DNA of 63,025 nucleotides, the filler included. It is 5 parts of 5 records of this genome, joined end to end, with 100 filler letters (N's around TTAATTAATTAA, not from the genome) between each part and the next. Parts side by side here need not be neighbours in the genome. Positions count along the whole stretch, not along the records: positions 1 to 12,039 come from SRR20825010_1535; 4 more parts are not named here. The stretch is one strand, 5' to 3'. Shown piece after piece: positions 2,764 to 63,025 of the stretch (within the stretch, counting starts at the first letter, position 1; every line of letters begins with the position of its first letter). The notes under the pieces were generated by a model. It was given only the letters and a program-made list of their open reading frames with translations. It ran no database searches and had not been told where the DNA came from. The position numbers and the translations under genes are program-made.

Positions 2764-5700
2764 ATGATCCTTTTCTTCGGAAACCCAGAAATCAAGGTAT
2801 TTGCCGTTCAAACAAACAGCAAAATTTCACAAGAAAATATAACTAAATTATCATGGTTATTTGGCGATCAGCCACAAATCGAAGCGGCGTCTGTAGACGC
2901 TTTTTTTATTGGTCCGCGTGCAGCAATGATTACTCCATGGAGTACAAATGCTGTTGAGATTACACAGAATATGTGCATTGAGGGGATTATACGAATTGAA
3001 GAATTTCATGCCTGTTCGAGTGATACGGTAGATTTTGACCCGATGCTCTCACAAAAATACAATAGCCTAGATCAACAAATTTTCGATATCAATATTGAGC
3101 CGGAAGCTATTAAGGAAATTAATGACGTTGCTTTGTTTAACCAACAAGAAGGTTTGGCTTTAAATGATGAAGAAATAGATTATTTAAATGAACTTTCTGA
3201 AAAACTAGGAAGAAAATTAACCGATTCCGAAGTTTTTGGATTCTCTCAAGTAAATTCAGAACATTGTCGTCATAAAATTTTCAATGGAACTTTTGTGATT
3301 GATGGAGAAGAAAAGCCGACTTCATTATTTAAAATGATTAGAAAAACTTCCGAAGAAAATCCTAACGGAATTGTTTCTGCCTATAAAGATAATGTTGCTT
3401 TTGTAAAAGGTCCAAAAGCAGTTCAATTTGCTCCTAAAACTGCCGATCAACCTGATTTTTATCAAGAAAAAGAATTTAATGCTGTTTTATCTCTTAAAGC
3501 AGAAACACATAACTTCCCTACTACAGTAGAGCCATTTAATGGTGCTGCTACAGGAGCTGGAGGAGAAATTCGCGACCGTCTAGCTGGTGGGAGAGGCTCT
3601 TTACCTTTAGCAGGAACTGCGGTTTATATGACTTCTTATTCCCGCTTAGAAGAAAACAGACCATGGGAAAAAGCTATGGAAGAACGTAATTGGCTTTACC
3701 AAACTCCTATCGATATATTGATTAAGGCTTCTAATGGAGCTTCCGATTTTGGAAATAAATTTGGACAACCGCTAATTGCTGGTTCGGTACTTACTTTTGA
3801 ACATGAAGAAGAAGCTCGTAAACTTGGGTTTGATAAAGTAATAATGCTTGCTGGAGGTATTGGTTACGGCAAAGAAGAGCAAGCTTTAAAAGCAACTCCA
3901 AAAGCAAGCGATAAAATTGTTGTTCTTGGAGGAGAAAATTATAGAATTGGGATGGGAGGAGCTGCGGTTTCTTCTGCCGATACTGGTGAGTTTAGCAGCG
4001 GTATTGAATTAAATGCAGTACAACGTTCCAATCCAGAGATGCAAAAGCGTGTTGCTAATGCAGTTCGTGGAATGGTTGAAAGTGATGAAAACGAAATTGT
4101 TTCCATCCACGATCATGGCGCTGGTGGGCACCTAAATTGTCTTTCTGAGCTTGTTGAAGATACTGGAGGAAAAATTGACCTTGATAAATTACCTGTTGGA
4201 GATCCTACACTTTCTGCAAAAGAGATTATCGGTAATGAAAGTCAGGAAAGAATGGGGCTTGTTATTGCTAAAGAACATACCGAAAAACTTAGAAGAATTG
4301 CAGAGCGAGAGCGTTCTCCAATGTATGAAGTGGGAGAGGTAACTGGCGATGATGTTTTCTGTTTTGAATCGGCTACCAAAGGAGATAAACCAATGGATTT
4401 GGCTTTAGAAGATATGTTTGGAAGTTCTCCAAAAACTATCATGACCGATAAAACCATAAAAAGAAATTATAAAGATGCTTCTTATAGCATTGAAAATATA
4501 CAACCCTATTTAGAGCAGGTGCTCCAACTGGAAGCTGTGGCTTGTAAAGATTGGCTTACAAATAAAGTCGACCGTTGTGTAGGTGGACGTGTTGCAAAAC
4601 AACAATGTGCTGGTCCTTTACAATTACCTCTTAACAATTGTGGGGTTATGGCACTCGATTTTAAAGGAAAAGAAGGCTTGGCAACTTCTATTGGGCACTC
4701 CCCTATTTCTGCGCTTATCGACCCTGTTGCTGGAAGTAAAAATTCTATTGCAGAATCGCTTACTAACATTGTATGGGCTCCTTTAGAAGAAGGTTTAAAA
4801 TCGGTTTCTTTGTCTGCTAACTGGATGTGGCCTTGTAAAAATGAAGGGGAAGATGCTCGTTTGTATGAAGCTGTACAAGGATGCTCGGAATTTGCTATTG
4901 AATTAGGAATTAATATCCCTACAGGAAAAGATTCGCTTTCAATGAAGCAAAAATATCCTAATGAAGAAGTTATTTCTCCAGGAACAGTAATTATTTCTGC
5001 TGGAGCACATTGTAGTGATATTACAAAAGTAGTTGAGCCTGTTTTACAGAAAAATGGAGGAAGTATTTATTACATCAACCTTTCTAATGACAACTTAAAA
5101 TTAGGAGGTTCTTCTTTCGGACAAATACTAAACAGCGTTGGAAATGATGTTCCAACTATTAAAAGTGCTGAAAATTTAAAAACAGCTTTCAATACAATTC
5201 AGGCATTAATAAAAGAAAATCAAATTCTTGCAGGACATGATGTTGCTAGTGGTGGATTTATAACTACCCTATTAGAAATGTGTTTTGCTGATATTAATTT
5301 GGGAGCGCAACTAGATTTGTCGGCTATTGGGGAAAAAGATTCTATAAAATTATTGTTTAATGAAAATGCTGGTATTGTTTTCCAAGCGAAAGAAAATACT
5401 GTTGTTGAAGAAACCCTTGCTAAAGCTGGAATTGCTTTCCATAAAATAGGAGCTCCACTAGAAGGCGATCGTTTACAAATAATAAATAACAATGATAGTT
5501 TTTCTTTTAGCGTGAGTCAGTTAAGAGATGTTTGGTATAAAACTTCTTTCTTATTAGATCAAAAACAAACACAAAATAACGTTGCAGAGGCACGTTATAA
5601 CAACTATAAAAATCAGCCATTAACCTATAAATTTCCTAAACAGTTTACAGGGAAACTACCTGAGGTTAGTGGAAAACGACCAAAAGCTGCTATTATTAGA

Positions 5701-6652: not shown

Positions 6653-8428
6653 ATGATGAAAGTAACTCGTTTGTTTGATTTTCCATACTATCAATTGGAA
6701 AAATATAATTTAGATATTGCCTTTTCAACAAAATATGGAGACGAATGGGTACATACTTCTTCTCAAGAATATGTTGACAAAGCAAATCAATTCAGCAGAG
6801 GTTTATTGCGTTTAGGTATTCAGCCTAATGAAAAAATTGCAGTTATTACACACACAAATAGAACTGAGTGGCATATTGCAGACATTGGAATCTTACAAAT
6901 AGGAGCCCAAAATGTACCAATTTACCCTACTATTTCAGAAGAAGATTATGAGTATATTTTAAATCATTCTGGAGCTTCTTATTGTTTTGTTTCTGATAAT
7001 GAGATCTTGGAGAAGCTAAATGCTATCAAGCAGAATGTTCCTACATTAAAAGAGGTATATGCTTTTGGAGACATTCCAAATACTAAGAATTGGGAAGAAA
7101 TTTTAACCTTAGGAGAAGATAAAAGCAATCAAGATGAAGTAGAAGCTCGAAAAAAGGCAGTAACTACAGAAGATTTAGCTACAATTATATATACCTCTGG
7201 AACTACAGGGCGACCAAAAGGTGTAATGCTTTCTCACAAAAATATAGTTTCAGATGTTTTAGCAAGTGAAGAACGGGTTCCGTTAGACCCTAGAGATGTT
7301 GCTTTAAGCTTCTTACCTATTTGCCATATTTTTGAACGCATGGTTGTGTACCTCTACCAACATTGCGGAATTAAAATATACTTTGCTGAATCTATTGATA
7401 AAATGAGTGACAACCTTAAAGAGGTTAAGCCTCATGTTATGACAGTAGTTCCACGACTCCTAGAAAAGGTATATGATAAGATTTACGCAAAAGGAGCAGA
7501 TTTAACAGGAATTAAGAAGAAATTATTCTTTTGGGCGATAGAATTAGGACATAAATTTGAGCCCTACGGAGCCAATGGTGCATGGTATGAGTTCCAATTA
7601 AGTATAGCCAGAAAGTTAATCTTTAGTAAATGGCAAGAAGGTTTAGGTGGGAATTTAAAAGTAATGGTTTCTGGGAGTGCCGCATTACAACCTCGTCTAT
7701 CTAGAGTGTTTGGAGCAGCTGGAATTCCTGTTATGGAAGGTTACGGATTAACAGAAACCTCTCCTGTTATTTCTGTAAATGACCAGAAAAATAGAGGATG
7801 GAAAATAGGGACTGTAGGAAAGATGCTTCCAGGGGTAGAAGTTAAAATTGCAGAAGACGGAGAAATTATTTGTAAAGGGCCTAATGTTATGATGGGGTAT
7901 TACAATGACGAAGAAAAAACAAATGAAGCCATGGAAGGTGGCTATTTCCATACTGGAGATATTGGAGAAATTGATGAGGACGGTTTCTTAAAAATTACCG
8001 ACCGTAAAAAGGAAATGTTTAAAACTTCTGGAGGTAAATATGTTGCGCCTCAATTAATTGAAAACCTAATGAAACAATCACGATTTATAGAACAGATTAT
8101 GGTGATTGGAGAGGGAGAAAAAATGCCAGCAGCTTTTATCCAACCAAATTTTGAATTTGTTGAAGAATGGGCAAAACGACATAACATAGAAGTAAATGGT
8201 GACTATAAAAAAATGATAGCCAACCCTGAGGTTATTAAAAGAATACAAGAAGAAGTAGACCACTACAATGAAAAGTTTGGACGTTGGGAACGCATTAAAT
8301 TGTTTGAACTTACTCCAGATGAATGGAGTGTTGAAGATGGACACCTTACTCCTACACTAAAATTAAAGCGAAGAATTATAAAAGAAAAATATAGCGATTT
8401 ATACAATAAGATATATGATCATAAATAG
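6653..8428 (+). CDS. fadD: Long-chain fatty acid--CoA ligase
   Basis: AMP-binding IIYTSGTTGRPKG, EGYGLTET, FHTGDIG, LTPTLKLKR; start likely ATG 6653/6656 rather than GTG 6629. Confidence 0.93.
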   Translation: MMKVTRLFDFPYYQLEKYNLDIAFSTKYGDEWVHTSSQEYVDKANQFSRGLLRLGIQPNEKIAVITHTNRTEWHIADIGILQIGAQNVPIYPTISEEDYEYILNHSGASYCFVSDNEILEKLNAIKQNVPTLKEVYAFGDIPNTKNWEEILTLGEDKSNQDEVEARKKAVTTEDLATIIYTSGTTGRPKGVMLSHKNIVSDVLASEERVPLDPRDVALSFLPICHIFERMVVYLYQHCGIKIYFAESIDKMSDNLKEVKPHVMTVVPRLLEKVYDKIYAKGADLTGIKKKLFFWAIELGHKFEPYGANGAWYEFQLSIARKLIFSKWQEGLGGNLKVMVSGSAALQPRLSRVFGAAGIPVMEGYGLTETSPVISVNDQKNRGWKIGTVGKMLPGVEVKIAEDGEIICKGPNVMMGYYNDEEKTNEAMEGGYFHTGDIGEIDEDGFLKITDRKKEMFKTSGGKYVAPQLIENLMKQSRFIEQIMVIGEGEKMPAAFIQPNFEFVEEWAKRHNIEVNGDYKKMIANPEVIKRIQEEVDHYNEKFGRWERIKLFELTPDEWSVEDGHLTPTLKLKRRIIKEKYSDLYNKIYDHK

Positions 8429-8481
8429 ATCCCTTCTATACTCAGCAATTGAGTAACAGAATCTTAACATAAATTTTTATT

Positions 8482-8509
8482 AAACTCTCCTTTTTTGGGG
8501 AGTTTTTTT
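8482..8509 (+). terminator. Rho-independent terminator after fadD
   Basis: AAACTCTCC-loop-GGGGAGTTT followed by a T tract. Confidence 0.75.
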
Positions 8510-8561
8510 ATTACCTTAATATTTTAAACGCCTTCACTTTGTGATTTAACAAATTTTACCT

Positions 8562-8589
8562 TATTTTACTATGCATGCATAATAAAATA
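8562..8589. promoter_or_regulatory. 28-bp near-perfect palindrome, candidate MarR operator
   Basis: TATTTTA-C-TATGCA|TGCATA-A-TAAAATA (13/14 pairs), directly upstream of the -7 element TATATTTG (8594-8601) of the MarR gene. Confidence 0.7.
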
Positions 8590-8620
8590 TTTGTATATTT
8601 GATTTCACCACTACAAGAAA

Positions 8621-9073
8621 ATGAAGGATATAACTATAGATTACGCATTAAGAGCAACTTGGCAAGCTGTTGCTAAAATGTATAATGAAGAAGCTGGAAA
8701 AGAAGATAGCACAATGGCTACTGGTTTTACACTTCTAAGCATCGACCCAGAAAAGGGATCTCCCTCTACAGCATTAGGCCCAAAAATGGGAATGGAAGGA
8801 ACTAGCTTATCTAGAACCCTAAAAAGCATGGAAGAAAAAGGTCTTATCATTAGAAAACCTAATCCAAAAGACGGACGTGGAGTTCTTATATGTCTTACCG
8901 ATTTTGGAAAAGAAAAAAGAGACTACTCTAAAGAAGTTGTTTTGAAGTTTAACGAAACCATTAGAGAGCATGTTACCGATTCGGATTTACAAGGTTTTTA
9001 TAATGTTATCGATGTAATCAATGAATTTATTTCAGAAAAGAAAATATATAAAGAAAACGTTTCAAAAAAGTAA
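8621..9073 (+). CDS. MarR family transcriptional regulator of the fatty-acid oxidation cluster
   Basis: wHTH: TSLSRTLKSMEEKGLIIRKPNPKDGRGVLICLT; sits between fadD and the HADH gene. Confidence 0.9.
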   Translation: MKDITIDYALRATWQAVAKMYNEEAGKEDSTMATGFTLLSIDPEKGSPSTALGPKMGMEGTSLSRTLKSMEEKGLIIRKPNPKDGRGVLICLTDFGKEKRDYSKEVVLKFNETIREHVTDSDLQGFYNVIDVINEFISEKKIYKENVSKK

Positions 9074-9176
9074 TTTCAATACAGAGAATAAAACATTTAT
9101 GATTAATTCTATGCACACAGCAGAATGATTAAATAAATGTTCTATCTGATCTTTAAAAGATAATAAATATAAACAG

Positions 9177-11582
9177 ATGAAAAGAATAATCAAAAAAGTT
9201 GCAGTTATTGGTTCTGGTATTATGGGAAGTGGGATTGCATGCCACTTTGCAAATATTGGCGCTGAAGTTTTACTGCTTGATATTGTACCAAGAGAATTAA
9301 ACGACAAAGAAAAAGCAAAAGGTCTTACCCTTCAAGATAAAGCGGTAAGAAACAGAATGGTAAACGATAATCTTACTTCAGCTTTAAAATCGAAGCCCTC
9401 TCCTATCTACAACCAGAAATTTGCTAGTAGAATTTCTACAGGTAATTTGGAAGATGATATTTCTAAAATTAAAGATGTAGATTGGATTATTGAGGTTGTT
9501 GTGGAAAGATTAGATATTAAAAAAAGTGTTTTTGAGAATATAGAAAAACATAGAACCCCAGGAACACTTATTACTTCTAATACTTCGGGGATTCCAATTC
9601 ATTTTATGAATGAAGGAAGAAGTAAAGATTTTCAGGAACATTTTGCGGTGACTCACTTTTTTAATCCGCCACGCTATTTAAAACTTTTTGAGGTAGTTCC
9701 TGGTCCAGATTGTAAAAAAGAAGTAGTAGACTTTTTGATGATGTATGGCGAGAAATTCCTAGGAAAAACTTCGGTTCTTGCTAAAGATACTCCTGCCTTT
9801 ATTGGTAATCGTATTGGAATATTCGGAATTCAAAGTTTATTCCATCAAGTAAAAGAACTTGGAATGACGGTAGAAGAAGTGGATAAACTTACAGGGCCTG
9901 TTATTGGTCGCCAAAAATCGGCAACTTTTAGAACCGTAGATGTTGTTGGTTTAGATACGCTTGTGCATGTGGCAAATGGAATTTATGAGAATTGCCCAGA
10001 AGACGAGGCACACGATCTATTTAAACTTCCAGAATTTATCCAAACTATGATGGATAATAAATGGCTTGGAAGTAAAACTGGTCAAGGTTTTTATAAAAAG
10101 GTAAAAGGAGACGATGGTAAAAGTGAAATCCTATCCTTGGATCTCGATACCATGGAATATACCGAAAGTAAAAAAGCAAAATTTGCTACGCTAGAAGAAA
10201 CTAAGACCGTTGATAAAGTTGCAGATAGATTTCCTATTCTTGTTAACGGAAAAGACAAAGCTGGAGAGTTCTACAGAAAAAACTTCGCTTCGCTATTTGC
10301 TTACGTTCAACATAGAATTCCTGAAATTTCTGATGAACTATACCGAATTGACGATGCCATGAAAGCTGGTTTTGGCTGGCAACACGGGCCATTTGAAATA
10401 TGGGATGCTATTGGAGTTGAAAAAGGAATTGAATTAATAAAAGCTGAAGGAAAAGAACCTGCAAAATGGGTTACAGAAATGGTAGCTAGCGGAAGTAATT
10501 CTTTCTATTCGGTAAAAAACGGAGCTACTTATTATTATGACATTCCTTCTAAAAAACAAGTAAAAAAACCTGGTCAAGATGCCTTTATCATTTTAGATAA
10601 CATCAGAAAATCTAACGAAGTTTGGAAAAATAGCGGAGTTGTTGTTGAAGATCTAGGAGATGGAATTCTAAATGTAGAATTTCAATCTAAAATGAATACC
10701 ATAGGAGGTGATGTTCTTGCAGGAATTAATAAAGCAATAGATTTAGCTGAAAAAGATTTCCAAGGCTTAGTGGTAGGAAACCAAGCAGCCAATTTCTCTG
10801 TAGGTGCCAATATCGGGATGATTTTTATGATGGCTGTGGAACAAGAATATGATGAGTTAAATATGGCTATTAAAATGTTCCAAGATACCATGATGCGTAT
10901 GAGATACTCTGGTATTCCAACTATTTCTGCACCACATGGTATGGCTTTAGGAGGCGGCTGTGAACTTTCGTTACATGCCGATAAAGTGGTAGCGGCAGCA
11001 GAAACTTATATGGGACTTGTGGAGTTTGGTGTAGGTGTAATTCCTGGTGGTGGAGGTTCTAAAGAAATGACGCTTAGAGCTTCAGACCTCTTTAGAAAAG
11101 ATGATGTTGAAACTAATGTGCTTCGTGAGCATTTCTTAACCATAGGAACTGCAAAAGTTTCTACTTCAGCATACGAAGCCTTTGATTTGAATTTACTTCA
11201 GAAAGGAAAAGATATTGTGGTTGTAAATAAAGACCGACAAATAGCAGAAGCAAAAAAACACGCCGTTTTAATGGCTGAAGCTGGCTATACACAACCTCCA
11301 AAACGCAACGATATTAAAGTGCTAGGAAAACAAGCATTAGGAATGTTCTTAGTTGGAACAGACTCCATGAATGCTGGACATTATATCTCAGAACACGATA
11401 AAAAAATAGCAAATAAGCTAGCCTATGTAATGGCAGGTGGCGATTTATCTGAAGCTACCAAAGTATCAGAACAGTACTTACTAGATTTAGAAAGAGAAGC
11501 TTTCTTATCGTTATGTACCGAACGTAAAACATTAGAACGTATTCAGCATATGTTAAAAACAGGAAAACCTCTTAGAAATTAA
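9177..11582 (+). CDS. 3-hydroxyacyl-CoA dehydrogenase / enoyl-CoA hydratase (FadN-type)
   Basis: GSGIMGSGIA Rossmann motif, SNTSGI, HFFNPPRY, C-terminal crotonase ALGGGCE and GLVEFGVG.IPGGGG. Confidence 0.95.
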   Translation: MKRIIKKVAVIGSGIMGSGIACHFANIGAEVLLLDIVPRELNDKEKAKGLTLQDKAVRNRMVNDNLTSALKSKPSPIYNQKFASRISTGNLEDDISKIKDVDWIIEVVVERLDIKKSVFENIEKHRTPGTLITSNTSGIPIHFMNEGRSKDFQEHFAVTHFFNPPRYLKLFEVVPGPDCKKEVVDFLMMYGEKFLGKTSVLAKDTPAFIGNRIGIFGIQSLFHQVKELGMTVEEVDKLTGPVIGRQKSATFRTVDVVGLDTLVHVANGIYENCPEDEAHDLFKLPEFIQTMMDNKWLGSKTGQGFYKKVKGDDGKSEILSLDLDTMEYTESKKAKFATLEETKTVDKVADRFPILVNGKDKAGEFYRKNFASLFAYVQHRIPEISDELYRIDDAMKAGFGWQHGPFEIWDAIGVEKGIELIKAEGKEPAKWVTEMVASGSNSFYSVKNGATYYYDIPSKKQVKKPGQDAFIILDNIRKSNEVWKNSGVVVEDLGDGILNVEFQSKMNTIGGDVLAGINKAIDLAEKDFQGLVVGNQAANFSVGANIGMIFMMAVEQEYDELNMAIKMFQDTMMRMRYSGIPTISAPHGMALGGGCELSLHADKVVAAAETYMGLVEFGVGVIPGGGGSKEMTLRASDLFRKDDVETNVLREHFLTIGTAKVSTSAYEAFDLNLLQKGKDIVVVNKDRQIAEAKKHAVLMAEAGYTQPPKRNDIKVLGKQALGMFLVGTDSMNAGHYISEHDKKIANKLAYVMAGGDLSEATKVSEQYLLDLEREAFLSLCTERKTLERIQHMLKTGKPLRN

Positions 11583-11612
11583 TTATGAATTTTGAATTAT
11601 AAATTTTAAATG
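11583..11612 (+). repeat. Left heptamer tandem array (TTwTrAA x4) flanking four-helix-bundle gene
   Basis: TTATGAA TTTTGAA TTATAAA TTTTAAA TG fills the whole gap between the HADH stop and the ATG. Confidence 0.85.
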
Positions 11613-11969
11613 ACCGCTAAAAAGGAAAATATCATTGCTGAAAAGTCTTTCAAATTTGCTCTAAGCATTATTTCCCTTTTTAATCAACTTACAAAAGAAG
11701 AAAATGAGTTTGTTCTTTCAAAACAATTAATAAGATCTGGAACTAGCATTGGAGCTAATATTCAAGAAGCCACAGCGGCACAGTCAAAAAAAGACTTTAT
11801 TCATAAAATGTCTATAGCATCAAAAGAAGCTAGAGAAACTAAATATTGGTTACGACTTATAAACGAAAGTAATGTCACTAAAATAGATGTTAGCAGTTAT
11901 TTAATTGAGATAGAACATATAATTAATATCATTACAAAAATTATTATAACCTCAAATAAAAGCAGTTAA
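11610..11969 (+). CDS. Four helix bundle protein (23S rRNA intervening-sequence protein / TIGR02436-like, Avd-like fold)
   Basis: KSFKFAL, LSKQLIRSGTSIGANIQEA..AQSKKDFIHKMSIASKEARETKYWLRL. Confidence 0.93.
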   Translation: MTAKKENIIAEKSFKFALSIISLFNQLTKEENEFVLSKQLIRSGTSIGANIQEATAAQSKKDFIHKMSIASKEARETKYWLRLINESNVTKIDVSSYLIEIEHIINIITKIIITSNKSS

Positions 11970-11971
11970 CA

Positions 11972-12001
11972 CATTCAAAATTCAACATTTAAAATTCAAA
12001 A
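11972..12001 (-). repeat. Right heptamer tandem array (TTyAAmA x4), inverted relative to the left array
   Basis: CA TTCAAAA TTCAACA TTTAAAA TTCAAAA; its reverse complement matches the left array at 24/30 positions. Confidence 0.85.
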
Positions 12002-12004
12002 CAA

Positions 12005-12039
12005 ATGAAAACAGCATATATAGTAAAAGCATACAGAAC
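12005..12039 (+). CDS. fadA: Acetyl-CoA C-acyltransferase (thiolase), 5' fragment cut by contig end
   Basis: ATG AAA ACA GCA TAT ATA GTA AAA GCA TAC AGA AC = MKTAYIVKAYRT, a thiolase N-terminus in the expected operon position; not in the ORF track. Confidence 0.75.
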
Positions 12040-12139
12040 NNNNNNNNNNNNNNNNNNNNNNNNNNNNNNNNNNNNNNNNNNNNTTAATTAATTAANNNNN
12101 NNNNNNNNNNNNNNNNNNNNNNNNNNNNNNNNNNNNNNN
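12040..12139. other. Artificial contig linker (N44-TTAATTAATTAA-N44)
   Basis: N run with a six-frame stop / PacI-containing core. Confidence 0.98.
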
Positions 12140-12167
12140 CTCTTCTCTCTTCTCTCTTCTCTCTTCT
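12140..12167. repeat. Heptamer tandem repeat (CTCTTCT)x4 at contig start
   Basis: Four perfect CTCTTCT units immediately after the linker, downstream of rdgB. Confidence 0.9.
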
Positions 12168-12213
12168 CTATACTTTATAATCTACTATTTGCAATAGACA
12201 ATAGATTTTTTGA

Positions 12214-12786
12214 TTATGGTTTTAAATAATCAATGAGTTGTTTCATTGCTTTTGCACGGTGACTCACTTTATTTTTTTCTTCTGAAGAAAATTCAGCAAA
12301 TGTTTTTGTAGTTCCTTCTGGTTGAAATATAGGGTCGTATCCAAAACCATTGTCGCCTTTTTTTTCAGTGGTAATAACTCCATTTACGATACCATTAAAA
12401 ATAATTTTTTCTTGATCTGTACGAAGTGCTATTACAGTTTTAAATCTTGCAGCACGGTTGTCTTTTTCTGCTAGTTCTTGTAATAACTTGTCCATATTGT
12501 CATCACTATTTTTTTGAGGTCCCGCATAGCGTGCAGAGTATACGCCAGGGGCATTGTCTAAACTTTCTACCTCTAGTCCAGTATCATCTGCAAAACAATT
12601 TAGATTGTAATTATCAAATACATAATTAGCTTTTATAGCGGCGTTTTCTTCAATAGTATCTCCGTTTTCTTCAATTTCTTCAGTGCAACCAATATCCTCA
12701 AGAGATAGTAGTTCTATATAATCTGGTAATATGGACTTTACTTCCTTTAATTTGTTTAAGTTATGAGTGGCAAAAACTAGTTTCAT
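12214..12786 (-). CDS. rdgB: Non-canonical purine NTP pyrophosphatase (RdgB/HAM1)
   Basis: FATHNLNK, ADDTGL, PGVYSARYAG, GFGYDPIF, SHRAKA. Confidence 0.96.
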   Translation of the reverse strand: MKLVFATHNLNKLKEVKSILPDYIELLSLEDIGCTEEIEENGDTIEENAAIKANYVFDNYNLNCFADDTGLEVESLDNAPGVYSARYAGPQKNSDDNMDKLLQELAEKDNRAARFKTVIALRTDQEKIIFNGIVNGVITTEKKGDNGFGYDPIFQPEGTTKTFAEFSSEEKNKVSHRAKAMKQLIDYLKP

Positions 12787-14588: not shown

Positions 14589-15446
14589 ATGATTTCTGAA
14601 AAACAATTTCAAGAGGAACTCGAGCTTATAATAACAAACGCCATACGAGAAGATGTAGGAGATGGCGATCATAGTTCGTTAGCTTGTATTCCATCTGAGG
14701 CAAAAGGAAAAGCAAAACTTTTAGTTAAAGATAAAGGTATTATTGCGGGCGTGGAATTTGCTAAACGAGTCTTTAATTTTGTAGATGCTTCTCTGGAAAT
14801 AGAAACGCTAATAAACGATGGGGCTACAGTAAAAGAAGGAGATATTGTATTTTATGTAGAAGGGAGTTCTCAGTCAATTTTAAAAGCAGAACGTTTGGTG
14901 CTCAATGCTATGCAGCGTATGAGTGCTATTGCGACTAAAACACAGCGCTATGTAAAATTATTGGAAGGAACAGGAACAAAAATTCTTGATACTCGAAAAA
15001 CAACTCCTGGAATTCGTGCTATCGAAAAATGGGCGGTAAAAATTGGAGGCGGAGAGAATCATAGGTTTGCTTTGTATGATATGATTATGTTGAAAGATAA
15101 TCATATTGATTTTGCTGGTGGAATTTCTCAGGCCATAGAAAAAACAAAAAAATACCTAAAAGAAACTAAAAGAGATTTAAAAATAATAGTAGAGGCTAGA
15201 GATCTTCAAGAAGTGGAGGTTATTTTAAAAGCTGGAGGAGTGTATAGAATTCTTTTAGATAATTTTAATTATGAAGAGACGCGAAAAGCCGTGAAATTAA
15301 TAAGCAATGAATGTCTCACAGAATCTTCGGGTGGAATTAATGAAAAAACCTTGCGTTTGTATGCCGAATGTGGGGTAGATTATATATCTTCTGGTGCGCT
15401 AACACATTCCATTTATAATATGGATTTGAGTTTAAAAGCGGTATAA
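14589..15446 (+). CDS. nadC: Nicotinate-nucleotide diphosphorylase (carboxylating), QAPRTase
   Basis: EDVGDGDHS, DTRKTTPG, NHRFAL, LKDNHI, LLDNF, SSGGI, SSGALTH. Confidence 0.97.
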   Translation: MISEKQFQEELELIITNAIREDVGDGDHSSLACIPSEAKGKAKLLVKDKGIIAGVEFAKRVFNFVDASLEIETLINDGATVKEGDIVFYVEGSSQSILKAERLVLNAMQRMSAIATKTQRYVKLLEGTGTKILDTRKTTPGIRAIEKWAVKIGGGENHRFALYDMIMLKDNHIDFAGGISQAIEKTKKYLKETKRDLKIIVEARDLQEVEVILKAGGVYRILLDNFNYEETRKAVKLISNECLTESSGGINEKTLRLYAECGVDYISSGALTHSIYNMDLSLKAV

Positions 15447-20790: not shown

Positions 20791-20890
20791 NNNNNNNNNN
20801 NNNNNNNNNNNNNNNNNNNNNNNNNNNNNNNNNNTTAATTAATTAANNNNNNNNNNNNNNNNNNNNNNNNNNNNNNNNNNNNNNNNNNNN
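20791..20890. other. Artificial contig linker
   Basis: N44-TTAATTAATTAA-N44. Confidence 0.98.
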
Positions 20891-31523: not shown

Positions 31524-31623
31524 NNNNNNNNNNNNNNNNNNNNNNNNNNNNNNNNNNNNNNNNNNNNTTAATTAATTAANNNNNNNNNNNNNNNNNNNNN
31601 NNNNNNNNNNNNNNNNNNNNNNN
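31524..31623. other. Artificial contig linker
   Basis: N44-TTAATTAATTAA-N44. Confidence 0.98.
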
Positions 31624-59801: not shown

Positions 59802-59901
59802 NNNNNNNNNNNNNNNNNNNNNNNNNNNNNNNNNNNNNNNNNNNNTTAATTAATTAANNNNNNNNNNNNNNNNNNNNNNNNNNNNNNNNNNNNNNNNNNN
59901 N
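59802..59901. other. Artificial contig linker
   Basis: N44-TTAATTAATTAA-N44; abrupt switch to GC-rich sequence afterwards. Confidence 0.98.
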
Positions 59902-60456
59902 GTGTTTGCTGCCCTTGGCGCCGGATGGTTCTACGCCGGCCTCAGCTCGGCCGATGTGCTCCTCAGCCTGCGCCGGACCGCCATGCTCTCGGGCTCGATC
60001 TTCGTCATCATCTGTGCCGCTTCAGCCTTGGGTCATCTCGGCGCGCTCGAACGCATCCCGGACATGATTTCACAGACCGTGATCGAGTGGGGGCTGGGTC
60101 CGACGGACTACATGCTGGCGATGAACGTGATCTTCCTGCTGGCCGGAATGGTGCTCGACATCCCGGTGGCGTTGGCGCTTCTGGTGCCGCTGCTCGCCCC
60201 TGTCGCCCTCGAACAGGGAGCCGATCCGGTGCATCTCGGCATCGTTCTGTGCTTCAACCTGTGCATCGGGCTGGTGTCCCCGCCGATGGGAGGCTGCCTG
60301 CTCGTGGTTTCCACCGTCACCGGCGTGAACTACTGGAAGCTGGCCCGCGCCGTCATCCCCTTCGTTCTGGTCCAGATCGCGGTGCTGGCGCTGCTGATCC
60401 GGATACCCGCCCTCAGTCTGGCCTTGCCCCATGCCTTTGGCCTGGGCGGGGGCTGA
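59902..60456 (+). CDS. dctM: TRAP transporter large permease DctM, 3' part
   Basis: GADPVHLGIVL..NL.IGLVSPPMG, PFVL, PALSL.LP. Confidence 0.9.
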   Translation: MFAALGAGWFYAGLSSADVLLSLRRTAMLSGSIFVIICAASALGHLGALERIPDMISQTVIEWGLGPTDYMLAMNVIFLLAGMVLDIPVALALLVPLLAPVALEQGADPVHLGIVLCFNLCIGLVSPPMGGCLLVVSTVTGVNYWKLARAVIPFVLVQIAVLALLIRIPALSLALPHAFGLGGG

Positions 60457-60502
60457 GACAGCATGAAGCGTAGAAAGAAATTGATAAAGGAGAGGAACTG
60501 AC

Positions 60503-61480
60503 ATGACTTACACGAAAATCCTGGGCGGCGCCCTGTTCGCTGCAGCCCTCACACTGGCCGGCGCGGCCAACGCCCAGATCAAGATCGCGCTCGACAGCCC
60601 GCCCGATCTGGAAGGCTCCGGCAGCTATGTCTGGGCCCACACCTTCAGCACCTATCTCAACGAGAACGGCATGCCGGCCGAGGAATTCGCCCGCGGCAGC
60701 ATCGGCGGCGACGACGAACTGTTCGACCAGGTCAGCCAGGGCCTGCTGGAAGTCTCTTTGTCCCCGCTCAACATTGTCGGCTCGCTTGACAAGCTGATCT
60801 ACGGTTTGCGTCTGCCCTATTTCTTCGCCGATGAAACCGAAGTGGATCGCGCGCTGAACGAAGGCGGCATGCTCGCCAAGATCAACGACGCGACGACCAA
60901 GGGCGGCGTCCGCGTGATTGCGGTCAATCACGTCGGCCAGGCGACCGGCATCTTCAACACCAAGAAGCCGGTGAAATCCGTGACCGACATGGCCGGGCTC
61001 CGGATGCGCGCGCTCGACGAGAGCCAGATCGAGCTCTACAAGGCCTGGGGTGCTTCGGGTACTATCGTCAGCTGGGCTGAAGTCCCCAATGCGCTGCAGA
61101 CCGGGGTGGCCGACGGCTACATGAACCCGGCCTTTGTACCGCTCTTGTTCGGCCACACCGACTTCCTCAAGTTCTACACCGACGCCGCCGTCTCGCCATC
61201 GCTGCGTATCACCATCGTGTCGGAAGACTGGTACCAGGGACTGAGCGAGGCAGACCGCGCGAAAGTCGACGCCGCCGCGGCCGCGGCAACCGCGGCAAAC
61301 CGCGAATGGCTCAAGACCCAGGATGCCGTTCTGGGCAAGCTGGAAGCTGCCGGCGTCGCCGTCGAGCGGCTCGATCAGGCCGCACGCGACGCGTTCCGCG
61401 AAGCATCCGGCCCTGCCTACAACTCCGACCTCCTGACCCAGGAACAGATCGCGGAATGGGAAGCCGCAAAGAGCAAGTAG
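60503..61480 (+). CDS. dctP: TRAP transporter substrate-binding protein DctP
   Basis: SD-like AAAGGAGAGG, signal peptide, LPYFF, DMAGLRMR, WAEVPNALQTGVADG. Confidence 0.92.
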   Translation: MTYTKILGGALFAAALTLAGAANAQIKIALDSPPDLEGSGSYVWAHTFSTYLNENGMPAEEFARGSIGGDDELFDQVSQGLLEVSLSPLNIVGSLDKLIYGLRLPYFFADETEVDRALNEGGMLAKINDATTKGGVRVIAVNHVGQATGIFNTKKPVKSVTDMAGLRMRALDESQIELYKAWGASGTIVSWAEVPNALQTGVADGYMNPAFVPLLFGHTDFLKFYTDAAVSPSLRITIVSEDWYQGLSEADRAKVDAAAAAATAANREWLKTQDAVLGKLEAAGVAVERLDQAARDAFREASGPAYNSDLLTQEQIAEWEAAKSK

Positions 61481-61483
61481 CAG

Positions 61484-62023
61484 ATGCGAAGCTTCGCACA
61501 GCAGCTCAGCCGGCTGTCGGCCGGCCTCAACAGTATCGCCCTCTGGGGGGCGGTACTGGCCCTCCTGATGATGGTCTTTGCCGCCAGCTGGCAGGTCATC
61601 GCGCGCTATGTCTTCGAAGCGCCGCCGATCTGGACGGAGGAACTGGCGCGCCGGGCCATGGTCTGGACCGGCATGCTGGGCGCATCCTGCGCTTTCTACG
61701 CCGGCACCGACCCGACTCTGTTTCCCGCTATGCGTCTTCGCCGTGGCGGCGCGGGGATGGCATTGGCCGTCATCCGTGCCTGCGGCGTGCTCGCCTTTGC
61801 AGTTCCTATTCTCTGGTACTCGGTCTTCGATGCACGGATGAATGTGGATCGTGGATTTCTCGGCCGGTCCCTGCAACGTCAGGCCGAGATGCTGGATGTG
61901 TCGATGATCTGGTTTACCGCCGCCGTGCCGGTCGCCTTTTTGTTGATCCTTGTCCATTTGAGCGCCCGGCTGGCGCTCCGGTTTTCCGGGCAGATGCCCG
62001 ATATTACCACCCAAAACTCATAA
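61484..62023 (+). CDS. dctQ: TRAP transporter small permease DctQ
   Basis: QVIARYVF..PPIWTEELAR..MVW; 4 TM segments. Confidence 0.9.
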   Translation: MRSFAQQLSRLSAGLNSIALWGAVLALLMMVFAASWQVIARYVFEAPPIWTEELARRAMVWTGMLGASCAFYAGTDPTLFPAMRLRRGGAGMALAVIRACGVLAFAVPILWYSVFDARMNVDRGFLGRSLQRQAEMLDVSMIWFTAAVPVAFLLILVHLSARLALRFSGQMPDITTQNS

Positions 62024-62032
62024 GGTACCATC

Positions 62033-63025
62033 ATGAAGTTGTTCATTGCCGGGCTGACCACCGAAACCAATTCATTTTCGCCGATGCCCACCGGGCGGGC
62101 CAGTTTCGAAGAAGGCGGCATCTTTCACGGCGACGCCACGCGGCACCCACTTCAATACTGGAGCGCCGCGCTGCACATCTGGCGCGAAATGGCCGAAGCA
62201 AAGGGCTGGGAGGTGGTCGAATCCCTCTGTGCGGCCGCCCAGCCTGGCGGTCCCACCGTCAAGCCGGAATTCGAAGCCTTTCGCGACGAGATCCTGCGTG
62301 ATCTCCGCGCCGCCGGTCCGGTGGATGTCATCCTGTTCGGACTGCATGGCGCCATGATCGCCGACGGTTATGACGATTGCGAAGGCGAACTGATCGCCGG
62401 TGCCCGCGCAATCGCCCCCGATGCGGTGATCGGCGGCCTGCTGGACCCGCATTGCCACCTCACCGAGCAGATGCTCGAGGCAGCCACGCTGCTCATTGCC
62501 TTCAAGGAATATCCGCATGTCGACGTGCCCGAACGCGCCCGTGAGATGTTTGCGCTGGCCGACCGCACGGCAAGGGGCGAAATCAAGCCGGTGATGCGCG
62601 ACTGGGACTGCCGGATGATCATCGCCATGCCGACCCCGCAGCAACCGATGCGCGGCTTTGTCGACGCCATGTCCGCGCGCGAGAAAGAAACCGGCATCCT
62701 GTCGCTGTCGCTGGCGCATGGTTTCCCCTGGGGCGACCACCCCCGCACCGGCACGCGCGCCCTTGCCATCTGCGACGGCAACGCCGACCAGGCCGCGACC
62801 GAGGCGGAACGGCTGGGCAAGGCGCTCTACGATCTGCGCTTTGACCTGCATCGCGATATCCCGGGGATCGACGCAGCTCTGGACCTGGCCGAAGCCGCGC
62901 CGAAAGGCCCAGTGGTGCTCGCCGACATGTCAGACAATGCCGGTGGCGGCGCGCCCGCTGACGCAACATTCCTGCTGCGCGCCATGATCGAACGCGGCAT
63001 GCGCAGCATCGCCACCGGTATCTTC
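62033..63025 (+). CDS. M81 family metallopeptidase (MlrC-like), 3' truncated; absent from ORF track
   Basis: Translated by hand: MKLFIAGLTTETNSFSP..., LHGAM, DDCEG, LDPHCHLT, KEYPHVD, GFPWGD, DMSDNAGGG; open to window end. Confidence 0.92.
   Translation, partial: MKLFIAGLTTETNSFSPMPTGRASFEEGGIFHGDATRHPLQYWSAALHIWREMAEAKGWEVVESLCAAAQPGGPTVKPEFEAFRDEILRDLRAAGPVDVILFGLHGAMIADGYDDCEGELIAGARAIAPDAVIGGLLDPHCHLTEQMLEAATLLIAFKEYPHVDVPERAREMFALADRTARGEIKPVMRDWDCRMIIAMPTPQQPMRGFVDAMSAREKETGILSLSLAHGFPWGDHPRTGTRALAICDGNADQAATEAERLGKALYDLRFDLHRDIPGIDAALDLAEAAPKGPVVLADMSDNAGGGAPADATFLLRAMIERGMRSIATGIF

Follow-up and report, generated by a model that had tools for sequence, protein, structure and literature searches.

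A four-helix-bundle gene between inverted heptamer arrays at a fad operon junction, probably a selfish cassette of the 23S rRNA intervening-sequence type

Introduction

The closest described counterparts of the element reported here are the intervening sequences (IVS) of 23S rRNA. In the excerpted text of PMC4990558, the Coxiella IVS is 428–444 nt long and carries an S23p open reading frame (ORF) within a 28-bp terminal inverted-repeat stem, with tandem heptamers of variable copy number just 5′ of the ATG. RNase III cleaves at the first repeat, the excised RNA is rapidly degraded, and the S23p protein is apparently not produced (PMC4990558, same excerpts). A family motif, GxxRxxxSxxxNxxE, has been described (PMC3936711), and the excerpts of PMC4990558 cite the family member Xcc0516 as a homopentameric ring.

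The 23S rRNA IVS and their S23p proteins form one of three separate literatures, the other two dealing with a large family of 'four helix bundle proteins' that has no assigned function, and with the over-representation of heptamers. The STRR of cyanobacteria are among the heptameric tandem repeats. Others are GGGAATC in Xanthomonas and GGGGATT in Nostoc (PMC4692102, in part of its text) and TAACTGA (PMC4679880, likewise in part). The terms 'four helix' and '23S' are absent from the texts of PMC4692102 and PMC4679880, and a full-text literature search returned no paper that joins heptamers with the PF05635 family, except for the remark on the Coxiella IVS.

Results

A gene-bearing cassette in the HADH–thiolase gap

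The window is the whole 63,025-nt stretch of DNA that was analysed, and consists of five contigs separated by N linkers. The first of these (contig 1) runs to 12039, and a linker follows from 12040. The features of the site, which lies at the right end of contig 1, are listed in Table 1. The first-pass annotation had described a 119-aa gene between the HADH stop (11582) and the thiolase ATG (12005), and ORF calls and Pfam agree; it had also spelled out the arrays (left TTATGAA TTTTGAA TTATAAA TTTTAAA TG; right CA TTCAAAA TTCAACA TTTAAAA TTCAAAA), and these letters agree with the sequence. The 419-nt unit (11583–12001) lies in the HADH stop-to-thiolase start gap. Its left boundary is the HADH stop codon, with the left array beginning immediately after it, the last left-array unit overlaps the ATG of the four-helix-bundle (4HB) gene, and 3 nt separate the end of the right array from the thiolase ATG. 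Only 11 thiolase codons are visible (MKTAYIVKAYR), and these match the first codons of thiolase in L001, the locus of a sister species; the HADH protein is 94% identical to that of Joostella sp. CR20.

Table 1. Features of the cassette site in contig 1 (window coordinates).
Feature	Coordinates	Strand	Description	Evidence
Upstream flanking gene	9177..11582	+	fused 3-hydroxyacyl-CoA dehydrogenase / enoyl-CoA hydratase (HADH), 801 aa	Pfam 3HCDH_N, 3HCDH, ECH_1
Left heptamer array	11583..11612	+	~4 units, TTTTGAA-like	TRF, inverted-repeat search
Four-helix-bundle (4HB) gene, intact	11610..11969	+	119 aa	PF05635 / TIGR02436
Right heptamer array	11972..12001	+	~4 units, TTCAAAA-like	TRF, inverted-repeat search
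Downstream flanking gene: thiolase, first 35 nt	12005..12039	+	truncated by contig end	

The other ORFs of contig 1 (GC 0.34) encode endonuclease I, a GyrI-like protein, a GDSL lipase, PurL, an acyl-CoA synthetase, MarR and HADH, and no transposase, reverse transcriptase or integrase is present on this 12-kb contig. No target-site duplication is visible by eye at the cassette boundaries; inverted ends are present. A search of 11000–12039 against Rfam (E up to 1) gives no match, the site being a junction between protein genes and not a 23S rRNA helix. A scan of 8400–12039 for sigma-70 promoters and terminators gives counts not above those of shuffles, and the cassette contains no terminator.

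Heptamer arrays and the predicted stem

Both spacers around the 4HB gene had been described as almost wholly 7-bp repeats, and TRF does report period-7 arrays on both sides, with 4.4 copies and 83% matches on the left (11581–11611) and 4.1 copies and 81% matches on the right (11973–12001). As described for the Coxiella IVS, tandem heptamers lie directly 5′ of the 4HB start and end at its ATG. Inverted-repeat arms (11578–11612 and 11972–12006, 77% complementary across 35 nt) enclose this S23p-type ORF, as the terminal inverted repeats of IVS do, and the first-pass count of 24 complementary positions in 30 between the arrays is reproduced. The window has an inverted-flank score of 15, which none of 445 control genes from related loci attains (maximum 12, 99th percentile 11.3), and the arm–arm RNA duplex is predicted at −16.1 kcal/mol compared to −5.9 in shuffles (z −4.7; 0/100 as low). 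A stem of about 30 bp with the ATG inside it had also been proposed. The long-range stem is present in the minimum free energy fold of 11570–12015, with the 4HB ATG paired, but the z of the whole region is only −1.87, and 5/100 shuffles are equally stable. When each left arm's own partner was ranked among 109 right arms, the window's own came 13th; this test is uninformative because related cassettes share units, and control genes and shuffles were substituted for it.

The four-helix-bundle protein

The window protein matches PF05635 (E 6.7e-25; 87.8 bits, cut-off 33.8), TIGR02436 (103.6 bits, cut-off 24) and PDB 2rld (E 6.5e-27), an entry with 5 chains. Its AF2 model (pLDDT 95.3) has helices at residues 8–29, 36–55, 60–87 and 95–117, and Foldseek aligns it to 2rld (TM 0.85–0.90), to 2gsc (TM about 0.7), and to Avd (4dwl) and ribonucleoprotein structures of diversity-generating retroelements (DGRs), the last two with TM 0.70–0.76 at 13–15% identity. 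The profile and Foldseek matches, together with the excerpts of PMC4990558, bear out the background given by the first-pass annotation, namely that this family was first described in 23S rRNA IVS cut by RNase III and has an Avd-like fold. All four residues of the family motif are there (R42, S46, N50 and E53), and among 60 relatives E53 is invariant and S46 nearly so. At 50% clustering 10,882 representatives match the window protein. A search of a phage collection gave only 2 unannotated records among 50,697, and PADLOC models returned 0 families for either the window or the L001 4HB protein. The protein plausibly has no role in beta-oxidation; these genes show a strong preference for two fad junctions.

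Occupancy and turnover at the fad junctions

The comparison set comprises 80 Flavobacteriaceae fad loci (1.6 Mb). Thiolase follows HADH in 80/80 loci and ACAD follows thiolase in 76/80, as far as the available DNA extends. The HADH–thiolase (first) and thiolase–ACAD (second) junctions account for 46 of the 47 4HB genes detected, each of the 46 running in the direction of the operon. Comparison of these junctions for presence, absence and empty sites had been suggested by the first-pass annotation, and occupancy proves to be very patchy. The first junction (n=80) has 23 inserts of at least 300 nt, 37 of 36–299 nt, and 20 of 35 nt or less, many of these 20 being merely 1–6 nt in length (empty sites); the second (n=75) has 26, 31 and 18 inserts in the same classes. 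On the HADH tree, cassette and no cassette are separated by at least 21 changes at the first junction and at least 20 at the second, and within genera, for example Maribacter and Flagellimonas, first junctions carry different 4HB clades. The edges of the inserts in two pairs of related strains are the stop and start codons. By this comparison, the cassettes exactly fill the stop-to-start gap of both fad junctions, and their turnover is evidently rapid.

Of the 49 gene-size inserts, 34 still have an ORF of 100 aa or more, and about 30% are decayed. A remnant at L076 consists of the first 4HB codons alone, joined to the right array, and geneless heptamer hairpins persist at fad junctions. Where such a hairpin and a cassette lie 1.2 kb apart, the heptamer family is common to the two in 6 of 12 genomes, with about 0.6 expected. 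The remnants and hairpins mark a course of decay in which cassettes evidently become pseudogenes and geneless heptamer hairpins. The dN/dS ratio is 0.04–0.30 in 26 of 29 pairs (dS is not computable for the other three, the window pair included), and the intact 4HB ORFs are by this measure under purifying selection. The values of dS exceed 1 in most 4HB pairs, and are mostly saturated. The two fad junctions are enriched, too, in a GC-rich palindromic element that is unrelated to the cassettes.

Gene and arrays as one unit

The segment 11577–12001, which contains the gene and both arrays and nothing beyond, matches the second-junction cassette of a Flavobacterium locus (L056) by blastn at 70%, and arrays homologous to those of the window occur at the second junction in nine loci other than its own. 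Against L001, homology breaks off at 11591 and restarts at 11929; the 4HB proteins at this same site share 32% identity, and the HADH proteins 94%. The window protein instead clusters with the second-junction proteins of L056 and L071 (support 100, identity up to 73%), and an AU test rejects a clade of the window and L001 proteins (p 3.2e-9). A check of tree congruence thus finds the 4HB tree incongruent with the host tree, and the junction label changes at least 7 times on the 4HB tree. The clade with TTCAAAA-type arrays occupies the second junction in several genera, and the window carries this clade at the first junction. The earlier proposal of a mobile or excisable unit made up of the gene plus its arrays is supported by the limits of gene-plus-array homology, by the empty sites and the changes at the first junction (at least 21), by tree incongruence and by the period-7 excess described below. 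Gene and arrays, as traced through these homologies, are inherited, replaced and lost together.

The closest cross-site relatives are 73% identical in protein and 70% in DNA, and the loci compared showed no pair of near-identical cassettes at different sites; this, together with the saturation of dS, indicates that movement is old or unseen. Exchange between the two junctions could occur by recombination between arrays instead of transposition.

Arrays across loci and phyla

The best period is 7 in 39/49 left flanks and 45/49 right flanks, compared to 141/1223 control segments. Among the gene-size inserts, inverted complementarity is above the control 99th percentile in 28/49, and the arm duplex has z below −2 in 31/49, so that the inverted period-7 arrays which the first-pass annotation proposed to look for around 4HB homologues are in large excess over controls. 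It had also asked whether repeat sequence and protein clade co-vary: the unit tracks the protein clade in the fad loci, but proteins about 55% identical to that of the window have very different heptamers. These relatives, with their unrelated units, weaken the notion that protein sequence dictates the heptamer, and they give no sign that the protein recognises the repeats by sequence. Arrays in the fad cassettes have a median of 4.0 units and a maximum of 5.3, and plasmid arrays have up to about 13; a constant five units, one per subunit, is not observed. Arm mismatches in the gene-size inserts include 30 G:U and 40 A:C; G:U is not in excess, and there is thus no RNA-specific signature.

The best period is 7 on both flanks in 11/11 distinct plasmid 4HB loci of Bacteroidota, Cyanobacteriota, Spirochaetota and Bacillota, and the inverted score is above all 100 shuffles in 9/11. 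A published Xanthomonas table, in the part available, gives XCC0516 (the 4HB protein of PDB 2gsc) a 4-unit array that lies 6 nt past bccP and extends over the XCC0516 start codon, and lists paired 4-unit arrays at many junctions within core operons, including groES–groEL, atpA–atpG and lepA–lepB. The same cassettes are found in unrelated settings, namely RND efflux, hsdS–hsdR, cas2–cas1 (antisense) and upstream of recF, and certain plasmid copies are antisense relative to their neighbours. The architecture occurs in five phyla with differing heptamers, GC-rich ones among them, and it is evident at this level of comparison that 4HB genes of four other phyla have the same array-flanked arrangement. 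Plasmids of Nostoc flagelliforme carry 4HB in three identical copies, which were considered as markers of the element's ends; these lie within a larger duplicated segment and are uninformative on the boundaries.

Discussion

The 419-nt unit is probably a selfish cassette of the IVS type, having the build of an S23p-IVS, that resides between two cistrons of an mRNA operon. The first-pass annotation had put forward two possible mechanisms, an mRNA intervening sequence or a mobile cassette that lacks a transposase, with a protein that may bind its own repeats. The two arrays would pair in the operon transcript to form a stem of about 28 bp, with its base 4 nt past the HADH stop and 6 nt ahead of the thiolase start, and the 4HB start codon would be sequestered. 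RNase III probably cleaves this stem, by analogy with the rRNA IVS of the same protein family, and such cutting would allow the insert to be tolerated in a co-translated operon. We speculate that the 4HB protein, which is pentameric in solved relatives, acts on its own arrays and on geneless hairpins of the same heptamer family, and that it may work with a host polymerase or nuclease as Avd does with the DGR reverse transcriptase. Action on the arrays would explain both the spread of the cassettes and their matched arms.

The alternative that survives best, although we regard it as improbable, is that the inserts serve the host as punctuation, with hairpins (with or without an ORF) acting as RNA-processing or stability elements that set the HADH:thiolase:ACAD ratio, and the 4HB protein as a repeat-binding regulator of the fad mRNA. 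The concentration of 46/47 4HB genes in two fad junctions is not what random hopping predicts, and a host role would also accommodate the common orientation of all 46, the purifying selection on intact ORFs, the inserts of more than 35 nt at 60/80 first junctions, and the paired arrays in many core operon junctions in the available part of the Xanthomonas table. A module with such a role is nonetheless reduced to 35 nt or less at 20/80 first junctions and decayed in about 30% of gene-size inserts; deeply divergent 4HB clades swap at one site between genomes with 94% identical HADH, the same cassettes occur in unrelated operons, and an unrelated palindromic element is found in the same junctions. 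Taken with the preference for fad junctions, the presence of that element suggests that these may be hot spots permissive to inserts, or that the inserts may serve the operon.

Somewhat less probable again is an ancient residence, in which 4HB genes were present in both junctions of the Flavobacteriaceae ancestor and descended vertically with many losses, the arrays being products of slippage and the genes never mobile. The cassettes are indeed old, with dS above 1 in most pairs, the TTCAAAA-type clade is held at the second junction in several genera, and near-identical copies at different sites are lacking. However, the window has at its first junction a clade otherwise of the second, first-junction clades differ within Maribacter and within Flagellimonas, the AU test rejects the grouping of the window with L001, and slippage alone cannot explain arms that match while their units differ between clades and phyla. 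That the gene is a stray Avd of a DGR is very unlikely: its fold is Avd-like (TM 0.70–0.76), and group-A relatives have bAvd Pfam matches that are weak and under the cut-off, but this reading was rejected because contig 1 has no reverse transcriptase, and 11400–12041 contains no template/variable repeat pair and fad genes flank the site in 80/80 loci. Accidental periodicity and complementarity of low-complexity spacers, for which the AT-rich region and the modest whole-region z might speak, can be dismissed, being refuted by the controls (0/445 genes at the window score, 0/100 shuffles at the duplex energy) and by recurrence in five phyla with different, partly GC-rich heptamers.

The IVS-type cassette may also be viewed more widely, in a reading that we consider possible, if doubtful. 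PF05635 genes with inverted heptamer arrays might be the autonomous members of a vast and hitherto unrecognised class of minimal mobile elements that colonise stop-to-start operon junctions and 23S rRNA helices across bacterial phyla, with geneless hairpins and solo arrays as non-autonomous derivatives or footprints. The pentamer would bind about 4–5 heptamers and bring in a host polymerase or nuclease, by which the arms are copied or maintained. Such a class would cover the heptamer excess, including STRR and TAACTGA repeats as well as the GGGAATC pairs of Xanthomonas (groES–groEL, atp and lpx junctions). 

The present evidence joins the three literatures introduced above through a single architecture, an ORF between inverted heptamer arrays, which is found in five phyla and which at operon junctions is rapidly gained, replaced and degraded. 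Should this link hold, what PF05635 proteins do and where heptamer arrays come from can be tested directly. It would also explain the PF05635 genes found in operons for cas, restriction-modification, efflux and metabolic functions, so far taken as functional partners there, and annotation pipelines could mark these genes as inserts.

Comparison with known systems

Integron cassettes resemble the window cassette in having a single promoterless ORF, an imperfect palindrome and co-directional insertion; they have one 3′ attC and require an integrase and attI, whereas the window cassette has two inverted arrays and no integrase nearby. MITEs, REP/BIME and REPIN are likewise small palindromic elements in operon gaps, with geneless copies that share the ends of a gene-bearing element. 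The cassette differs from them in that no transposase or RAYT is seen, heptamer arrays take the place of a fixed inverted repeat at its ends, and its 4HB protein has no known catalytic activity. Avd and the window protein share the four-helix-bundle fold, with pentameric solved structures, and the similarity is at fold level only; Avd acts on nucleic acid with a polymerase, and the cassette has neither a reverse transcriptase nor template/variable repeats nearby.

The known heptameric repeats, as far as the excerpted sources describe them, have in common with the cassette arrays a period of 7, a preference for four units, a copy number that differs between relatives, positions that start a few nucleotides past a stop codon or end right before a start codon, and convergent pairs that form hairpins in operon junctions. 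In the excerpts of PMC4692102 and PMC4679880 the arrays are read as G-quadruplex or translational signals, whereas here they bound a cassette that carries a gene, and, unlike in the published accounts of heptamer repeats, the geneless hairpins look like relatives of that cassette.

The 23S rRNA IVS differ from the cassette in their host, which for the cassette is an mRNA with a gap between two protein genes, and in the arms, which in the cassette can both be seen to consist of heptamers; cutting by RNase III is demonstrated for the rRNA IVS and predicted for the cassette. With these IVS (Coxiella and Leptospira, as described in the excerpted literature) the cassette shares its protein family and size class (428–444 versus 419–422 nt), an ORF inside an inverted-repeat stem of about 28 bp, heptamers of variable copy number before the ATG, an ORF prone to decay, and a sporadic distribution.

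Gene layout in the window

The window is composed of five contigs separated by linkers of the form N44-TTAATTAATTAA-N44, with GC contents in contigs 1 to 5 of 0.34, 0.33, 0.40, 0.42 and 0.64; contig 5 is probably derived from another organism, because its GC content lies well away from the 0.33–0.42 of the others. In contig 1 a MarR gene lies upstream of a fused 3-hydroxyacyl-CoA dehydrogenase/enoyl-CoA hydratase gene (HADH) of the beta-oxidation (fad) operon, followed by a four-helix-bundle (4HB) gene and by the first codons of a thiolase gene (MKTAYIVKAYR), which are identical to the thiolase N-terminus of the closest relative. The remaining contig 1 ORFs encode endonuclease I, a GyrI-like protein, a GDSL lipase, PurL and an acyl-CoA synthetase, and none of the ORFs of this contig is a reverse transcriptase, transposase or integrase. 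Contig 2 begins within a perfect (CTCTTCT)x4.3 array, 45 nt past the stop codon of a Ham1/RdgB gene; on the strand of this gene the array is purine-rich and of the left-arm kind described below, and a second heptamer hairpin or cassette may therefore have broken the assembly at this point.

Coordinates of features in the window and in comparison loci
Sequence	Feature	Coordinates	Remarks
Window	Linkers	12040-12139, 20791-20890, 31524-31623, 59802-59901	contig 1 ends at 12039
Window	MarR gene	8621-9073	contig 1
Window	HADH gene	9177-11582	801 aa
Window	Left array	11581-11611	period 7, 4.4 copies
Window	4HB ORF (+)	11610-11969	119 aa
Window	Right array	11973-12001	period 7, 4.1 copies
Window	Thiolase start	12005 to contig end	11 codons
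Window	CTCTTCT array	12140-12169	start of contig 2
Window	Ham1/RdgB gene	12214-12786	minus strand
Window	Contig 5	59902-63025
L001 (sister species)	Solo heptamer array	1039-1210
L029	Solo heptamer array	5252-5353
L080	Solo heptamer array	15015-15163
L061	J1 insert	2077-2907	828 nt
L088 (plasmid)	4HB gene with arrays	589-945	between cas2 and cas1
L091 (plasmid)	4HB gene with arrays	589-936	between cas2 and cas1

The 119-aa protein and its flanking arrays

The first-pass annotation had placed a 119-aa gene flanked by heptamer arrays between the HADH stop codon and the thiolase ATG, and ORF calls and Tandem Repeats Finder confirm this. The protein belongs to families PF05635 (87.8 bits against a cut-off of 33.8) and TIGR02436, and matches PDB entry 2rld with an E value of 6.5e-27. 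Its model has four helices (pLDDT 95.3), with TM scores of 0.85–0.90 to 2rld, about 0.7 to Xcc0516 (2gsc), and 0.70–0.76 to Avd, the DGR accessory protein. The two arrays are reverse complements, with 77% complementarity over 35 nt, and the 24/30 match counted in the first-pass annotation is reproduced in its register. The inverted-flank score of the window is 15, compared to a maximum of 12 among 445 genes of related loci with spacers of at least 25 nt on each side, and the arm-arm duplex has a predicted energy of −16.1 kcal/mol, compared to an average of −5.9 for shuffled sequences (z −4.7, with 0/100 as low). The transcript stem that had been proposed to include the ATG is present as a long-range stem in the minimum free energy fold, with the ATG paired at its top, although the region as a whole (446 nt) reaches a z-score of only −1.87.

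Occupancy of the two fad junctions

Relatives were collected by an HADH protein scan with one genome per species, and the best 80 of 613 confirmed loci, all from Flavobacteriaceae, were compared; the closest of these by HADH is Joostella sp. CR20, with 94% identity. Thiolase follows HADH in all 80 loci (junction J1), and ACAD follows thiolase in all 76 with DNA reaching far enough (junction J2). Among stop-to-stop ORFs with a minimum length of 70 aa, an iterated HMM identified 47 4HB ORFs in 1.62 Mb; 46 of these lie in J1 or J2, all on the operon strand. Junction lengths derived from alignment coordinates vary greatly. J1 is at least 300 nt in 23/80 loci (22 with a 4HB match) and 36–299 nt in 37; the remaining 20 have 35 nt or less and represent empty sites, many of these gaps being just 1–6 nt (e.g. 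'aaaATG'). J2 is at least 300 nt in 26/75 loci (24 with a 4HB match) and 36–299 nt in 31; the other 18 do not exceed 35 nt, but the limits of this short class are blurred, the ACAD start having been extrapolated. Both junctions are strong hot spots.

Other elements occupy the same sites. An unrelated GC-rich palindromic element with ends like CCCCCAAAGGGGG ... CCCCCTTTGGGGGTTAGGGG is found in J1 (L015, L029, L078) and J2 (L022, L048, L051, L063, L078; additionally L001, L060, L061), with 10 motif matches in eight fad junctions versus 12 elsewhere in the 1.62 Mb, a preference for the sites favoured by the 4HB genes. The J1 insert of L061 contains a 153-aa ORF without a 4HB HMM match, lies between repeated palindromic units of a different sort, and thus represents a third class of occupant.

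Heptamer arrays accompany the gene family

Array statistics were calculated for 49 gene-size inserts, including that of the window. The best period is 7 in 39/49 left flanks and 45/49 right flanks, compared to 141/1223 control intergenic segments, a large excess. In 28/49 inserts the inverted complementarity is above the 99th percentile of the controls, and in 31/49 the duplex z is below −2. Tandem Repeats Finder calls period 7 in 54/98 arms (median 4.0 copies, maximum 5.3). The units vary from cassette to cassette (TTTTGAA, GTATTGA, TTAGATT, GTAAGAC, CAAGAAT and others), with left arrays G-rich and C-poor and right arrays C-rich and G-poor. The arrays are thus a property of the 4HB gene family. 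Solo direct heptamer arrays (e.g. CAGTGGT x6, GTCTTGG x10) also occur between co-oriented genes away from 4HB genes, in 4/666 control intergenic regions.

Gene and arrays as one unit

In a tree of 34 intact 4HB proteins the window protein groups with J2 proteins of Flavobacterium (L056) and Zhouia (L071) with support of 100 and up to 73% identity, and is distant from its J1 counterpart in the sister species (L001), with which it shares 32% identity. An AU test rejects a clade of the window and L001 proteins (p 3.2e-9; this grouping was chosen with the tree already known). Heptamer types coincide with protein subclades on this tree, so that repeat sequence and protein clade co-vary, and the J1/J2 label changes at least seven times, three of the changes being forced by well-supported branches. 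In nucleotide alignment the window matches the L056 J2 cassette over 11577-12001 (70%), which spans exactly both arrays and the gene, and homology with L001 ends at 11591 and restarts at 11929; arrays homologous to those of the window are present in nine J2 cassettes. These comparisons, together with the turnover described below, bear out the proposal that gene and arrays behave as a unit, and show them to be inherited, replaced and lost together.

Turnover is extensive. On the HADH tree (78 taxa) the presence or absence of a cassette has changed a minimum of 21 times at J1 and 20 times at J2. In three sisters separated by very short branches (L067, L056 and L079) J1 holds a cassette, an 80-nt hairpin or a 4-nt gap, and two pairs sharing a species name differ by an entire insert, with homology breaking at the stop and start codons. 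No intact ORF (at least 100 aa with an HMM match) remains in 15/49 gene-size inserts; only the first 4HB codons, joined to the right array, are left in J1 of L076, and fragments are present in L036, L054 and L008, from which decay of cassettes is apparent. The dN/dS ratio is 0.04–0.30 in 26/29 pairs with at least 70% identity (dS was incomputable in the other three, including window versus L071), and intact ORFs are by this measure under purifying selection.

About half of the 36–299-nt junctions contain geneless hairpins of inverted heptamers. Scoring a heptamer family as shared when similarity exceeds the cross-genome 95th percentile, J1 hairpin and J2 cassette have a common family in 6/12 genomes with this arrangement (L053, L056, L072, L004, L052 and L055, perhaps three independent lineages), as do 0/9 cassette-cassette and 0/6 cassette-hairpin genomes.

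Plasmids and other phyla

A tblastn search of plasmids returned 31 records, and 11 distinct loci from Bacteroidota, Cyanobacteriota, Spirochaetota and Bacillota were examined. The best period is 7 in 22/22 flanks, and 9/11 inverted scores exceed all 100 shuffles. The units include AGTGATT, GTCGGAG, CTCTCCG, TCACTGG and AGTAAAA, with TTCAAAA/TTTTGAA in two Nostocales loci. Here too the 4HB genes sit at gene junctions (RND adaptor–permease, hsdS–hsdR, cas2–cas1, and upstream of recF), and by these comparisons the architecture of an ORF between inverted heptamers is general beyond Flavobacteriaceae. In the Nostoc and Anabaena plasmids (L088, L091) the 4HB gene with AGTAAAA-type arrays lies on the strand opposite to cas2 and cas1, and thus the operon-strand orientation is not universal. 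The available text of PMC3936711 describes 18 4HB genes within cas loci, interpreted as functional partners.

In Xanthomonas, supplement 2 of PMC4692102 lists a 4-unit array that lies 6 nt after bccP and extends over the start codon of XCC0516, which encodes the 4HB protein of PDB 2gsc. It also lists paired 4-unit arrays 21–135 nt apart and a few nt from stop codons (gltD–gltB, groES–groEL, atpA–atpG, atpD–atpC, ddl–ftsQ, lepA–lepB, lpxB–lpxA), and in the text of the paper G-rich heptamers are reported to favour four units and stop-codon positions. Two further arrays (Table A, rows 12 and 13) are each 4 nt downstream of a gene, with the next annotated gene 436 or 396 nt away; these gaps are cassette-sized and could conceal 4HB genes that are decayed or lack annotation.

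Nature of the element

The arms would be expected to pair in the operon transcript. The predicted stem would start 4 nt downstream of the HADH stop and end 6 nt upstream of the thiolase start, and would thereby juxtapose the two cistrons and hide the 4HB start codon. Two observations speak against a role in RNA only: arm mismatches show no excess of G:U (30, versus 40 A:C), and some plasmid 4HB copies are antisense to their neighbours. Simple transposition is opposed by the lack of a transposase on contig 1, of a target duplication visible by eye at the boundaries, and of near-identical copies at two sites among the 80 fad loci.

We interpret the window cassette as an element of the type of the 23S rRNA intervening sequences (IVS), located outside rRNA. 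By homology to the IVS, RNase III would be the likely processing enzyme. We speculate that the arrays are the target of the 4HB protein, whose solved relatives are pentameric; a host polymerase may take part, in the way that Avd works together with its reverse transcriptase. A full-text search of openly accessible papers found no link between heptamer arrays and the 4HB family except in a report on Coxiella, and the texts of both heptamer-repeat papers (PMC4692102, PMC4679880) contain neither 'four helix' nor '23S'. A wider reading would join three unexplained phenomena: the rRNA IVS with its S23p protein, the 4HB family, and the excess of heptamer repeats.

The Coxiella IVS, as described in the available text of PMC4990558, is 428–444 nt long and encodes S23p in a decaying ORF. 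Its borders are inverted repeats that form a 28-bp stem, with three tandem heptamers and a degenerate fourth directly before the ATG, and RNase III cleaves at the start of the first repeat. Heptamer copy number is strain-dependent, and a like whole-unit change is seen between two related Flavobacterium succinicans loci (L046 and L048), whose left J1 arrays are 45 and 52 nt, differing by one 7-nt unit. The window unit shares the build and size of the Coxiella IVS, but lies in an mRNA junction rather than in 23S rRNA.
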